Source: Okamejei kenojei (taxonomy: Eukaryota). Taken from it: a DNA stretch of 64,000 nt. The notes beneath the pieces are model-generated. The model searched no databases and was not told the DNA's origin. It saw nothing but the letters and a program-made list of their open reading frames with translations. Each line of letters begins with the position of its first letter. Positions within the stretch are counted from its first letter, which is position 1. Shown here piece by piece: positions 1,649 through 63,465 of this stretch. A program made the position numbers and the translations under genes. The stretch covers positions 35,526,001 to 35,590,000 of the forward strand of contig CM069133.1 in assembly GCA_035221665.1 (NCBI GenBank), written 5' to 3'.

Positions 1649-1709
1649 CTGAAAACCCCGACTGAGACGGAGATCAGGAAGGTGCAGAGTAAACCCAGAT
1701 AGAGCGCAT
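1649..1709 (-). pseudogene. Degenerate signal-peptide exon of a third Siglec-15-like paralogue (gene C); rest of gene would lie left of the window
   Basis: Minus strand reads gtgaggaggacaccacactgaagtgttgggtgtg-ATGCGCTCTATCTGGGTTTA-CTCTGCACCTTCCTGATCTCCGTCTCAGTC...AG|GTAACG. It is homologous to the leaders at 51279 and 39584 and is also 61 nt, but a 1-nt deletion gives an in-frame TGA at codon 12. Confidence 0.7.
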
Positions 1710-2107
1710 CACACCCAACACTTCAGTGTGGTGTCCTCCTCACCCACTTCTGTTAAATTTGTTGATACTGAAGTCGGTCAAGTATTTCATAATTTCGTAA
1801 TAATGGAACACCGATGGTGTTTGCACTTCAGCTTGTCATGGGTCTGCGAGTCCCCTGCTACAGAAACATCTCCTCGGCCCAGCACATGATTCTTCTCATC
1901 GATCCACAACTCGGTTTAATTTCCATTTACCACCTAGCACTCAGTGGACATAGGACAGAATTTAGGACTGACGCCCCCCCATCAGTCCCCTCTGCCATTT
2001 AATCATGGCTGATCGATTTTTATTCACTTCCGATCCCCATTTTCCTCCTTCATCTTCCTCCCCAAACCTGTGACGCCCACAAATTCAAATACCTACCATC
2101 CTCCCAG

Positions 2108-2763
2108 TGAGGATAAAGTGATTAAACCCCATTAATGTAAGGAGTTTTTTAAAGAGAATGTCGAACTGAGAGGGGCCGGAGAGAGGGGTTCGACACAGAT
2201 GTGTCTAAATGTTACCAGAACCCACCTTGAGTCCTAGAGTCAGAAGTAATAGCATTGGAAAACAGCGGTAGAAGGGAGTGATGTCGAGAGATCCCTATCA
2301 GTGGAATGGTTGATAGATGGGACCCTTGTCACTATAGCTAGACTTTAGTACTGATATAGGGTAACTGAGAGGGTTCACAAGGAGTGAGTACAACTAGGGT
2401 AGGTCATAGCAACTGACATGCTTATAGAATAAATGAATAGTACAACACAGAAACACACCCCAGTCCAAGAATATGCTTATTACCATGAACATGTTTGAAC
2501 ATGCGAATGTATGATTTAGGAGGAGTCAGGTGATGTACGGTGGGATGTACCTACAGATTGGTGCACCTCCGACCCTGATTGGAGAAGGGTCACGGAGGGA
2601 GGTTGAATGTAAAATTCGGTGTAATAAAGGGGGAAGACTTCTTTGCTTCGGTGTTCTCGACTTGGAAGGCACCCGGGTCTGCAGAGTCGTGAGGAATAAA
2701 GAACTCTTGCTTCCAAGATTTAATCTTAGACGGTGATAGTGAGCACAAAGCCGTATCTTCACA
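2108..2763 (+). repeat. ERV 5' LTR
   Basis: tgagga...tgattaaaccccattaa...gaggaataaagaactc...cgtatcttcaca; colinear with 9064-9722 and carries AATAAA near 2695. Confidence 0.92.
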
Positions 2764-2765
2764 AA

Positions 2766-2782
2766 TGGGGCTCGTCCGGGAT
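2766..2782 (+). promoter_or_regulatory. Primer-binding site, tRNA-Pro
   Basis: tggggctcgtccgggat, 2 nt after the LTR; matches the tRNA-Pro PBS TGGGGGCTCGTCCGGGAT with one G missing. Confidence 0.9.
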
Positions 2783-2949
2783 CGCCACTCCGGCTGCTTG
2801 GTGGAGGCAAAGAAAGGAGGGGAAGGTGACCCTGCTGATTCAGCAGTCTCCGATCTCCTTGCTTGCCAACAGCATGTGAGCGAGTGATATTCGGTTGGAA
2901 AGACTCGGGAATAGTCCGACGAGACGATTGGAACCGGAACGAGAAAGTA

Positions 2950-60115: not shown

Positions 60116-60360
60116 GTAAGAAACTATCAGCACATTCTTCAGTGCACAGCGAGGGTGGAGAGCGAGGGAGAGGAGCAGGAACCAGAAACCCTGTCTCTCT
60201 GGGCTTAGCGAACGCAGACTCGCCTCATAAGGTCTTAAGGAATAGCAGTACAATTAGGCCATTCGGCCCATCAAGTCTATTCCGCCAATTAATCATGGCC
60301 GATCTATATCTCCATCCTTACACCATTCTACTGCCTTCTCCCCAATAACATCTGACAACC

Positions 60361-60492
60361 GTACTGCGTCCGGTGGTGATCAACAAACCGGATGAGTACC
60401 ATTACTTTCACAATGTACACCCCCCCCCCCCCCCCCCCCCCCCCCATTTATCCATCTGTCCCAGCGTGAGCTCCGGCTGCGGGTCACACCTG
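60361..60492 (+). pseudogene. Orphan 3' part of another V2 exon copy
   Basis: ..VINKPDEYHYFHNVH(poly-C)FIHLSQRELRLRVTP G|GTAAG with homologous downstream intron; a CR1 tail (about 60228-60360) lies where its 5' part would be. Confidence 0.75.
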
Positions 60493-61803
60493 GTAAGAAA
60501 TCATCGCCACAGTCTCCAGTGGACGGCGAGGGGAACGGGAAACCACGTCCCTTGGGTCTCAACGAGCCGAGCCTTGCGTCTGTGTAGCCAAGGTCCTCTA
60601 CAGAGTGTTGGGGGCAGCTTTACTATCGCGATAGCCAGGACGCCTCCAGTGACCAGGACGTTAAACCAAGGTCTAGTCTGCTCCTCAAACGGCTCTGACA
60701 GATCTTGGTCACCCTTCTGAATGAATGAATGAAACTTTGATATCACATGGGACGTGTCACACTGAAATTATTTGTTTTGCAAACACGAGAATGCAAACAG
60801 TCGCCACCTATAACACGCCGACAAAAATTACAATGTATTCCATTTAGCTCCAATTACTCCTTGTTCCCGCCCTCCGCCCCTCCATCCGCACGCCGGGATT
60901 CCCACGCCGGGATCCGCACGCCGGGATTTCCGTTTATTCTCTGCGGTGCATCCGGCATCCCCGCGGCCCGTACGACCTCCTATACTCACGAGGGCTTGCC
61001 CGTCATCGTCCGCGACCGCAGCCGTGTCCTCTCCTAAACGCCACAGGGATCCGCCGCCCGCTTCTCGAGTTGTTTTTGTTAATCTATTGACAGATATAGA
61101 AGAGAACAAAAATGCTCCAATTTGTTCATTTATATTAAGATAATACTTGTACACGCGAGTAAAGATGTTTATTGCAATTATATTGGATGTTGAGGAGACC
61201 TCTCCGACAGACATGTGTACAACTTTAATGTTCTGAACGAACAGTAAAGATTACCACCACCAAAACCCCCCTCTTCATATGTAGCCAGCTATCACTTGGT
61301 AGGTTTTGTCCCGCCCCACCTCTCATTTCCACCCCTTCCTCGCGCTAATACAATGGTTCTGAATAAGAATCCCGACAGTAAACATCGCCGGTCGTCTGCC
61401 TCCACAGATATTACATTGCCTCCACAGCTGCTGCCTGACCGGATGAGTTATTTCTGCATTTTGGGTTTTGCTTAATACAAATATAGCTGTTGTCGAGTGA
61501 GATGAAGACGCTCTGAACATTTCCAATAATGATAGGTTGATTGAGATCGTTGGAAGATTGTGCAACCCAGAACTGTATTCTCGAACGGGTACGTGAATGA
61601 GAGGTGATACGTGTGAAATTGCCAAATTCTTACTGAGTTTGAGAGTGTATATGAAGGGAGGATCTTTCCCCTCACTGAAGAATCTCCGACCAGGGTCGCG
61701 GTTTAATGCATAGATTATTTAGTACTGAGAAGAGGAAAGGTTCCTCACCTAGGTTATGGAAAAAGCTTCAAATTTGGTTTGACCTCTCTCATTCTCTATT
61801 CAG

Positions 61804-61903
61804 TCCCACAGATGTTCCCCGTTATGATCTTGTGCATGCCACTTGTATTGAAAACCCTTACCTTGTTAGTGATGTACTTCGTTTTATATTGTGACAAAGT
61901 GAG
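61804..61903 (+). CDS. Gene B exon 4: transmembrane helix with central Lys
   Basis: ctctattcag|TC CCA.. reads VPQMFPVMILCMPLVLKTLTLLVMYFVLYCDKV with donor AG|GTATGT; Lys codon at 61851-61853; conserved with gene A. Confidence 0.85.
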
Positions 61904-63431
61904 GTATGTAACATTATGAATATGCTTGCATCTAAGTGACTTAAATATAAATAACGTGATGCTCTTTACGTGTCGGGATGTGATTTATTTACTCGATAGC
62001 ATCCCAGGTGAACCAGTATTTGTTGCAACTAATGGCACATGATAAAGGAATGGTTATTATATTGTAGTTGATTGCAGCAATTTGATGTTCGGACATTTCC
62101 AGTTGCCCTGTCCAAATTACAAAAGTGATGTACTTCAAACTTAAAACAACTTTTGAGCACTTTGGGATATTTGCCATGATGAATGAATCTGATAAATGCG
62201 AGCATAGAATTCGTGCCGGCAGAATCACTGACACCGCGCAGGAACAGTACATCTGTTTCTCTCCTCATCTCAACTGAACTGAGACCTAACTGCATCCCCA
62301 GCTGGTATTAGCCAGCTCAGTTCAAACCAAGAGTAAATGTGTTGTCCTGGTCTAAAGAATCCGGCTCCCCGAGGCAAAACCTCGCTCACGTGTTAGGGTT
62401 ACGGCTCAGTCTCCAAAACCATCGTTCTTCTCGGGCTTCCATAGAAACGTAGAGATATAGGAAATAGGTGCAGATGTAGGCCATTCGGCCCCTCGAGTTA
62501 GCGCCATCATTCAATGTGACCATGACTGATCATCCAAAATCAGTACCCTTTTCCCGCTTTCTCCCCGCAGCCCTTGATTCCTTTAGCCTAAAATTTATAT
62601 CAAACTCTCTCTTGAAAACATCCAGTGAATTGACCTCCACTGCCTTCTGTTGCAGAGAATTGCACACTCACAATTCTCTGGGTGAACACGTTTTTCCTTA
62701 TCTCAGTCGCCAATGGCCTATCCCTTATTCTTAAACCGTGACCCTTGGTTCTGGACTCTCCCAACTTGGGGAACAGTTTTCCTGCATCTGTTCAATTCCT
62801 TAAGAATTTCATGTGTTTCTATGAGATCCACTCTCTTCCTAAATTCCAGTGAATATAAGCCCAGTCGATCCATTCCTTCTTGTTTAATCTGCAAGGATAT
62901 GATCGCGCGTTCCCAATGTCAGTCAGTTCTTGATCTCAAATACTACGCCCTTGCTTAGCATTTTAGATTCGTAAACCAAGCTCACTCTACCCCCCCCCCC
63001 CCCCCCACCCACCCCCCCCCCCCCCCCCCCCCCCCCGCCTCCCCGCTCCCCCTCCCCCGGTACCATCCTAGACGCCCACGTTCATTGGGTAAGTCGTACT
63101 GGTTATCGTCGAAACAAAATGTTTCACCTTCCACCTGTTGTTATTAATCTGCACCTGCCATTCGCTTGCCCATTTGATCATCAGATCAATATCATCATGT
63201 AGCCGAGGCCGATCTCCTCACTATCACACCGCCACTATCATCAACGATGTTGAGCGTATGCAATTCCGTGTCAAACTCAAATTTTGTTTTGAAGTAAAAT
63301 GTACGCTCTACAGAGTTCAGTTGAAGCCTCGATCGAAATCCCGTTAGTGCTGCCTACTAATGGAGAGAGTAGCGGTCTTATTGTACCATTAAGCTGTCCT
63401 ATTTTAATTGGTCTTCTTTCGTTAACTGCAG

Positions 63432-63465
63432 AAAGGGCGGAGACCGAGCCATCGCAGGAAGTTAA
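63432..63465 (+). CDS. Gene B candidate last exon: short cytoplasmic tail
   Basis: cttctttcgttaactgcag| acceptor; a phase-2 join gives RKGGDRAIAGS*; AATAAA at 63786-63791. No paralogous copy is available to confirm it. Confidence 0.5.

Follow-up and report, generated by a model that had tools for sequence, protein, structure and literature searches.

The 64,000-nt window (the whole stretch of DNA analyzed) very probably forms part of a birth-and-death cluster of Siglec-15-related shark and ray immune receptors, in which gene B is intact and its neighbors are dead. Siglec-15 is a drug target in cancer and bone. At least three paralogues had been proposed for the window in an earlier note; the copies are real, but only gene B is intact among the three found there. 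A local duplication pattern alone is ordinary for immune gene clusters. If a family of the Siglec-15 branch that extends across sharks and rays has V-V ectodomains homogenized by lineage and includes Lys as well as ITIM members, paired Siglec-type receptors would have had a second and more ancient origin, and genes B and G2 provide named handles on whether paired self-sialic-acid sensing predates bony vertebrates.

Gene B encodes a predicted activating receptor

Gene B (51279-63465; Table 1) has a 984-nt coding sequence (327 aa) with no internal stop and GT-AG boundaries at all introns, and its product would run in the order leader, V, V, transmembrane segment (TM) with Lys, and short tail. 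In the public run X2, V1-V2 and V2-TM were joined at the predicted GT-AG sites, with a 323-nt contig linking V2 to the TM exon with 0 mismatches; V2 splices straight to the TM exon, with no intervening C2 exon. These GT..AG joints were absent from three other runs compared. No run recorded as RNA contained the stretch, and X2, a single sample not recorded as RNA, was judged to be transcript derived solely by the joints. The splice from TM to last exon is predicted from the acceptor and reading frame and lies outside the read-backed joints. An extra V2 piece at 60361, noted previously, is real, comprising the 3' third of the exon with the donor kept and no acceptor. The ending of the gene B tail is similar to the tails of P0008 and P0059, and its TM aligns at the Lys with nine elasmobranch Lys-type TMs and four SIGLEC15 TMs. 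Judged from sequence, gene B is an intact, spliced gene for a predicted activating receptor.

Table 1. Receptor-related features of the window (window coordinates)
Feature	Position	Strand	Remarks
Broken leader exon, probably orphan	1649..1709	-	61 nt then GT; compensating indels, stop at codon 12
Gene A TM exon, Lys kept	24910..24989	-	Stop where unrelated retroelement-type sequence starts
A-B block, with inverted duplicate at C3:35.448-35.498 Mb	25455..64000, on to ~73.8 kb		Colinear chain
Gene A V2 exon	26870..27249	-	1-nt deletion near 26990, giving a frameshift
Reverse transcriptase (RT)-bearing insertion in gene A V1-V2 intron	27295..32065		RVT_1 match; not in inverted copy A'
Gene A V1 exon, open V-set	35126..35512	-	Pfam V-set 5e-7; splice sites checked
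Gene A leader, pseudogene	39524..39584	-	TGA at codon 9, donor GT>GA; motif 39615-39587
Gene B leader exon, signal peptide	51279..51339	+	Open, GT donor; motif 51248-51276
Gene B V1 exon, Siglec-15-like V-set	55255..55641	+	PDB and fold best match Siglec-15; splice to V2
Gene B V2 exon, second V-set without Arg	59714..60115	+	Pfam V-set 4.5e-11; both joints in run X2
Partial V2 duplicate (3' third)	~60361..60492	+	Absent from spliced contig; B' has one too
Gene B TM exon, central Lys	61804..61903	+	Lys-anchored TM alignment; spliced contig
Gene B last exon (10 codons and a stop; tyrosine-free)	63432..63465	+	CAG acceptor, frame closes

Predicted activating and inhibitory types have similar ectodomains

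On C3, the family numbers at least 12 close V1 exons, together with 11 clear copies of the leader. A predicted ITIM-bearing paralogue lacking the TM Lys, for which a search had been suggested, exists as G2 (C3, 34.21-34.25 Mb), which is intact (433 aa); its TM is uncharged, CTYASI occurs twice, and VIYAAV forms a terminal ITIM. The G2 V1 is 62% identical to that of gene B. No joint between the G2 tail exons was present among the 15 listed of approximately 4,260 contig matches, a repeat-swamped and uninformative set. The leader and last exon of another paralogue, G6, were not found. Approximately 230 kb from the window, a sister-branch gene has the arrangement V-V-C2-TM(Lys), which is the SIGLEC15 layout plus one V.

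All 59 homologues identified in databases, in rows that include isoforms and automatic models, are from sharks or rays: 17 are Lys type, 27 carry tyrosine motifs, and 15 were unclassed by the patterns used. A literature search found no paper describing this shark-and-ray family. Both signaling types occur within 6 of 14 genera, and the Lys and ITIM TM/tail types each span sharks and rays. In a V1 tree of 47 rows, from which the 15 unclassed rows were excluded, signaling type changes nine times, with the starred branches forcing seven, while the eight taxon groups need eight changes (minimum, seven). A clade of Lys-type sequences was rejected (p-AU 3e-10; 15 rows). On these trees, V1 domains group by taxon, not by signaling type. 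As in paired receptors, there are charged-TM, short-tailed members and ITIM members with similar ectodomains (B versus G2). The similarity of activating and inhibitory ectodomains is likely maintained by gene conversion or domain shuffling; the taxon-wise grouping could also reflect recent duplications, occurring repeatedly and accompanied by switches of tail.

Relationship to Siglec-15

The best PDB match of gene B V1 was Siglec-15 (E 2.8e-14), with sialoadhesin and CD33 also matching, and the best match in a fold search was Siglec-15 structure 7zoz. Gene B residues Trp6, Cys26, Cys57, Cys108, and Arg109 align with W44, C64, C95, C142, and R143 of human Siglec-15, as numbered in PMC10264397. 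By alignment, the fourth V1 cysteine (the C95-C104 pair) lies at position 65 in B and 67 in paralogues; Cys26/Cys108 and Cys57/Cys65 are putative bonds in B. The A-strand Trp44 is kept; the site of the G-strand Tyr154 holds Leu in B and Phe in most paralogues, and gene B V1 has a shorter F-G loop than Siglec-15 and no counterpart of Tyr87. In a V tree of 129 columns, with Siglecs and one lamprey protein as outgroups and 25 of 97 V domains omitted as redundant, the family, SIGLEC15, and bony-fish relatives were set apart from six other Siglec V domains (99/92), and the node uniting all chondrichthyan sequences had support of 84/87. The Siglec-15-like ancestry proposed in the earlier note is supported: sequence, fold, and tree each place V1 closest to Siglec-15. 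Domain 2 is a V-set rather than a C2 domain by Pfam, with CD276 and pIgR as best PDB matches and Siglec-15 at only E 0.0013. Thus, these genes are not Siglec-15 orthologues in architecture.

It is quite possible, at somewhat below even chances, that the C3 family is SIGLEC15 itself, expanded and relocated as co-orthologues, and not a sister lineage. Human SIGLEC15 is a single gene beside SLC14A (urea transporter) and EPG5, from which the locus here differs, as the cluster is on C3 and the urea transporters are on C1. When frog SIGLEC15 was searched against the whole genome, the best matches fell in the C3 family (E 1.2e-10, ~33% identity) and none on C1, although only first-look candidates (81) were scored, and a SIGLEC15 profile gave nothing above chance over 400 kb around the C1 urea-transporter genes; neither search found a canonical SIGLEC15. 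On inspection, a weak profile match at C1:139.910 Mb (E 0.06-0.14) was put down to chance. The layout of the sister-branch gene and the alignment of TMs at the Lys also point to co-orthology. However, the tree does not group the chondrichthyan clade with tetrapod-lungfish SIGLEC15, its base collapses into a polytomy that includes coelacanth, gar, bowfin, and salamander relatives, and the gene adjoining the C1 urea transporters, for which Pfam and Atlas gave no name, is only putatively EPG5. An ATP5F1A-type match lies 30 Mb away on C1, so only part of the human gene order is conserved.

Proposed signaling and ligand

The TM Lys of gene B would mediate association with a DAP12/DAP10-type adaptor; in Siglec-15, this Lys is required to bind DAP10/12 (PMC7226832). 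None of 21 candidates in the genome belonged to the DAP10 family, a result uninformative on the adaptor because the exons are short. ITIM forms would recruit SHP-type phosphatases. Whether V1 would bind sialylated glycans through Arg109 is about an even call. Inhibitory forms would read a self sugar and activating forms counter its mimics, and conversion or shuffling would keep swapping outer domains between "on" and "off" versions.

That these are Siglec-15-fold paired receptors with a protein or pathogen ligand, and not sialic acid, is possible, though less likely than not. The Siglec Arg is missing from A, G6, the 35.82-Mb gene, and 6 of 17 Lys-type database rows, gene B lacks the G-strand aromatic, and pairwise dN/dS is near neutral (0.5-0.95 in 15 of 16 V-exon pairs and 2.1 in one), all of which would fit such a ligand; yet B, G2, and G3 retain the Arg, as do 24 of the 27 tyrosine-motif rows (2 could not be parsed), at a divergence of 45-60%. 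Zebrafish Siglec-15 bound the glycans tested weakly (PMC7226832).

In PMC7226832, Siglec-15 is characterized as conserved, activating, and lacking an ITIM. Tentatively, and on balance improbably, cartilaginous fish may have their own paired sialic-acid sensing from the Siglec-15 lineage, independent of mammalian CD33-related Siglecs and with no separate single-copy SIGLEC15; on this reading, the salamander relatives with ITIMs would point to pairing already in the Siglec-15 family of the jawed-vertebrate ancestor, of which the activating-only mammalian SIGLEC15 would be a remnant.

It is very unlikely that the family corresponds to the known skate MDIRs (CD300/TREM/pIgR-like). MDIRs are a multigene activating/inhibitory skate family (PMC3031540) and V2 matches pIgR weakly, but in PDB V1 matches Siglec-15, sialoadhesin, and CD33 and no CD300, TREM, or pIgR at E<=0.001, and Siglec-15 ranked first in the fold search, the two comparisons by which MDIRs were set aside. 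One file of the elephant-shark genome supplement had 0 matches for siglec, MDIR, and ITIM.

Dead copies and segmental duplication

The motif gtgagg.ggac.ccacactgaag.gttgg, previously reported upstream of three leader exons, has exactly three copies in the window, at 1743-1715 (-), 39615-39587 (-), and 51248-51276 (+), and no fourth copy was found in the 64 kb with up to five substitutions allowed. It is the 5' end of a duplicated first exon and precedes other leader copies on C3 too. The three leaders (1709 -, 39584 -, and 51279 +) are each 61 nt. Genes A and B are head-to-head with the same exon order, as described, and their ATGs at 39584 (-) and 51279 (+) are 11,695 nt apart.

Gene A is dead, with a stop in the leader, a lost donor, a frameshift in V2, and a TM cut short; the rest of its TM and its last exon were not found in window positions 1-25000. 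RT and tyrosine-recombinase ORFs are present at 15.8-18.2 kb of the window. Gene A V1 shares 62% amino acid and 79% DNA identity with that of B and, at the position of the Siglec Arg, carries Gln. The colinear A/A' chain skips 27300-32063, where the partner is contiguous, identifying a 4.8-kb insertion that may be DIRS-like. Because A is dead and LINE copies make up most of the interval, A-B was not retained as a candidate bidirectional promoter. What lies head-to-head is one dead and one live gene in a unit that was itself duplicated, and not a working bidirectional pair.

The inverted copy, A'-B', lies approximately 30 kb from A-B, aligns over 21 colinear pieces (23,891 nt) at 86.9% identity, and has both genes broken. 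The 1709 leader exon, one of the three in the earlier note, is present but broken and probably an orphan rather than the first exon of a separate gene, and the region around it is a direct 82% copy of the surroundings of a V-less leader at C3:35.5037 Mb. V exons do occur 11.4 kb beyond it, outside the window, but a second broken leader intervenes, nearer to them at C3:35,517,593 and with a stop at codon 2. Tandem and inverted duplication with pseudogenization, as first proposed, is borne out: segmental duplications, some inverted and some direct, give rise to the copies, which then decay via stops, frameshifts, a lost donor, and retroelement insertion. The explanation of the extra copies as haplotype duplicates or misassembly is largely refuted and extremely improbable, since, despite 500-N assembly gaps within some C3 blocks examined, A and B V1 are only 79% identical in DNA, A-B recurs inverted at 87% and the two blocks differ in their insertions and lesions, so that neither is a haplotype duplicate of the other, DNA contigs fit the unique parts of gene B with 0-4 differences, and related skates have several models per species.

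Comparison with known receptor systems

The family resembles Siglec-15 (PDB 7zoz; PMC10264397 and PMC7226832) in V1 sequence, the B-F and extra C'-region cysteines, the A-strand Trp, the F-strand Arg, a TM Lys with a similar helix, and a short tail. It differs in having a V-set second domain instead of C2 (V-V-C2 in the sister branch), in the absence of the G-strand Tyr from B, and in comprising multiple genes, ITIM members and numerous pseudogenes among them, away from the urea-transporter locus. The paired CD33-related Siglecs (Siglec-5/14 and -11/16; PMC7379906) are likewise clustered, with activating and inhibitory forms, ectodomain homogenization, pseudogenes, and repeated loss of the essential Arg; in contrast, the skate family lies on another branch of the Siglec tree and has V-V architecture and a putative canonical B-F disulfide. 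Membership among the CD33-related Siglecs was rejected, as the V domain is apart from CD33/CD22/Siglec-1-type rows (six rows; 100/93). Sharks also have separate CD33-like V-V-ITIM proteins (P0155).

Siglec-15-type V domains are also found in salamander V-V-ITIM proteins (P0074 and P0080) and in coelacanth, gar, bowfin, and lungfish "Siglec-15-like" models, and the salamander tails have similar CTYA-x-I and terminal V-x-YA-x-V motifs, but the V domains of these proteins are on separate branches. MDIR, teleost NITR, and KIR/LILR are birth-and-death paired IgSF receptors with a charged TM or ITIM. The skate family shares with skate MDIR, NITR, and KIR/LILR its birth-and-death evolution and pairing, whereas its V1 is of the Siglec type, not the CD300/TREM type.

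Gene structure and layout

Gene B is intact, with a 984-nt coding sequence of 327 amino acids and GT-AG boundaries at every intron. Its V1-V2 and V2-TM junctions (V1 and V2, first and second V-set exons; TM, transmembrane exon) were found at the predicted sites, with the V2 fragment skipped, in contigs of X2, a public sequencing run with no RNA label on record, over a stretch that excluded the leader and last-exon splices; one 323-nt contig had zero differences to B. Neither junction was present in three other runs compared.

The coordinates of the earlier note stand. The window has exactly three occurrences of the upstream motif that it reported, all immediately 5' of a 61-nt leader, and genes A and B, with the common order leader, V1, V2, TM, start 11,695 nt apart in opposite directions. 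The extra V2 fragment (approximately 60361-60492) is the 3' third of a V2 exon, donor included. Three LINE copies, 88 to 90% identical and one of them inverted (window 36328-39178, 41912-44800, and 47214-49260), fill the A-B interval and the first intron of A.

Features of the cluster and of related loci on C3, the sequence carrying the window
Feature	Position	Strand	Remarks
Gene A start	39584	-	leader with motif
Gene B start	51279	+	leader with motif
Gene B leader exon	51279-51339	+	61 nt
Gene B V1 exon	55255-55641	+	joined to V2 in run X2
Gene B V2 exon	59714-60115	+	joined to V1 and TM in run X2
Gene B TM exon	61804-61903	+	joined to V2 in run X2
Gene B last exon	63432-63465	+	completes 984-nt CDS
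Open V1 locus B	window	+	Lys in TM
Open V1 locus G2	C3:34.21-34.25 Mb		433 aa; TM without charge; CTYASI motif twice; terminal VIYAAV ITIM
Open V1 locus G6			Lys TM; no Arg in V1; search located neither leader nor last exon
Open V1 locus G3		-	tail shortened
Sister-branch gene	C3:35,821,653-35,827,630		TM Lys; C2 and TM share an open frame
Sister-branch loci	C3:44.63-44.88 Mb		V1-V2(n)-C2-TM

Duplication and decay

Gene A is dead, with four separate lesions: leader codon 9 is a stop, the leader donor is GA, V2 has lost 1 nt, and the TM exon runs into a stop where retroelement-type sequence starts. The remaining leader of the window (1649-1709, minus strand) has a stop at codon 12. Past the window, 10 kb farther, lie a second broken leader, two V1 exons and one V2, all of them damaged, a TM with a stop, and a third, V-less leader in surroundings that directly duplicate those of the 1709 leader. 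V exons thus do lie downstream of the 1709 leader, but it is probably an orphan. Two direct repeats of approximately 650 nt (87% identical, 7 kb apart; window 2114-9722), immediately upstream of it, likely represent an LTR retroelement insertion; the corresponding region at C3:35.504 Mb lacks them.

An inverted second version of the A-B block, which spans 25.5-73.8 kb in window coordinates, is present at C3:35.448-35.498 Mb, where the counterpart of B has a frameshift in V2 and no TM and that of A is frameshifted and without a leader. Because the two blocks share only 86.9% identity over 23,891 nt in 21 colinear pieces and carry distinct insertions, a haplotype duplicate was ruled out. Inverted duplication produced the head-to-head layout; A and B are no working bidirectional pair. 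Another inverted, head-to-head pair, G3 (-) and G4 (+), lies at C3:34.64-34.73 Mb; the ITIM tail breaks off at an identical position in both, and the G3 TM has gained Arg and Asn, possibly an inhibitory-to-activating conversion. Dead copies are also dispersed at greater distances: a V1-V2-TM unit with a trailing leader, built like gene C, at 4.6 Mb (C3:30.93-30.94 Mb), and a single leader at 30 Mb (C3:5.467 Mb).

Searches of the genome with B exons identified at least 12 close V1 exons at 30.9-35.6 Mb of C3 and at least 11 clear leader copies, both lower bounds from the inspected parts of this interval. Four V1 exons are in open loci and the remaining eight in broken loci; G2 is the predicted ITIM paralogue without a TM Lys. 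The local cluster is ordinary birth-and-death. The tandem and inverted duplication with pseudogenisation previously suggested is borne out by the inverted block, the direct copy of the 1709 region, and the broken loci. A sister branch, V1-V2(n)-C2-TM, at C3 35.82 and 44.6-44.9 Mb was also found in chimaera, sharks, and rays.

Relation to Siglec-15

The Siglec-15-like origin proposed earlier agrees with the sequence match, fold, and tree grouping of V1. The top PDB sequence match of V1 was human Siglec-15 (E of 2.8e-14), followed by sialoadhesin (3e-5), and its predicted structure (pLDDT 87; input alignment containing Siglec-15 rows) placed 7zoz first in a fold search. B has counterparts of Siglec-15 Trp44, Cys64, Cys95, Cys142, and Arg143, reference residues described in PMC10264397, and none of Tyr154 and Tyr87. 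A 72-row tree with limited outgroups set all family V1 and V2 domains, together with SIGLEC15 and its relatives in bony fish and salamanders, apart from the six domains of other Siglecs (99/92). The family domains fell outside the tetrapod-lungfish SIGLEC15 clade. V2 by itself gave ambiguous PDB matches. Siglec-15 is V-C2, whereas domain 2 of B is V-set; B therefore lacks the V-C2 architecture. A frog SIGLEC15 query over the skate genome gave no match better than the C3 family, and no Siglec V was found in 400 kb around the urea transporters on another sequence, C1. There, two urea-transporter genes lie in tandem (C1:139.93-140.05 Mb), adjoined on the same strand by a gene that resembles EPG5 and, if so, would be inverted relative to human. 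Three salamander database proteins (P0074, P0080, and P0302) are V-V-ITIM, with V domains of the Siglec-15 type; the contig encoding the axolotl protein is equal in length to the one bearing axolotl SIGLEC15.

Distribution and signalling types

At E≤1e-8, V1 matched 59 database proteins, every one of them from a shark or ray and variously named by automatic annotation. Pattern classing gave 17 Lys-type (predicted activating) and 27 with tail tyrosine motifs (predicted inhibitory), leaving 15 unclassed, including two Rhinoraja rows that are Lys-type by eye. The Lys-type TM is similar from Heterodontus to skates and lines up with SIGLEC15 TMs on the Lys. V1 nevertheless tracks taxonomy: a 47-row tree required 8 changes for 8 taxon groups versus 9 changes of signalling type, and forcing Lys-type V1s into one group was 160 log units worse (p-AU 3e-10). 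Arg is retained in 24/27 tyrosine-motif and 11/17 Lys rows, isoforms included. dN/dS was 0.5 to 0.95 in 15 of 16 pairs, which suggests relaxed or partly diversifying selection and is no proof of positive selection.

Proposed history and comparison with known receptors

Beyond the architecture, B splicing, both tail types, duplication, and decay observed here, a likely history would begin with a V-C2-TM(Lys) ancestor; a second V was likely gained next, as in the sister branch, also in chimaera, and C2 was then likely lost in the window's branch. By analogy with Siglec-15 biology (PMC7226832), B would signal via a DAP12/DAP10-type adaptor and G2 via ITIM phosphatases; binding of sialylated glycans by V1 is putative on the same basis, its chances about evenly balanced.

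The observation in the earlier note is confirmed, and its interpretation supported and extended. Our literature search found no account of the family; the paper on the MDIRs (skate CD300/TREM/pIgR-like receptors, covered in PMC3031540) and Siglec-evolution reviews, beyond its scope, may affect novelty. The family is apparently an undescribed variant of paired Siglec-type receptors. In paired Siglecs, as described in PMC7379906, old signalling modules lie beneath ectodomains homogenised lineage by lineage, and the shark and ray family has the same pattern.
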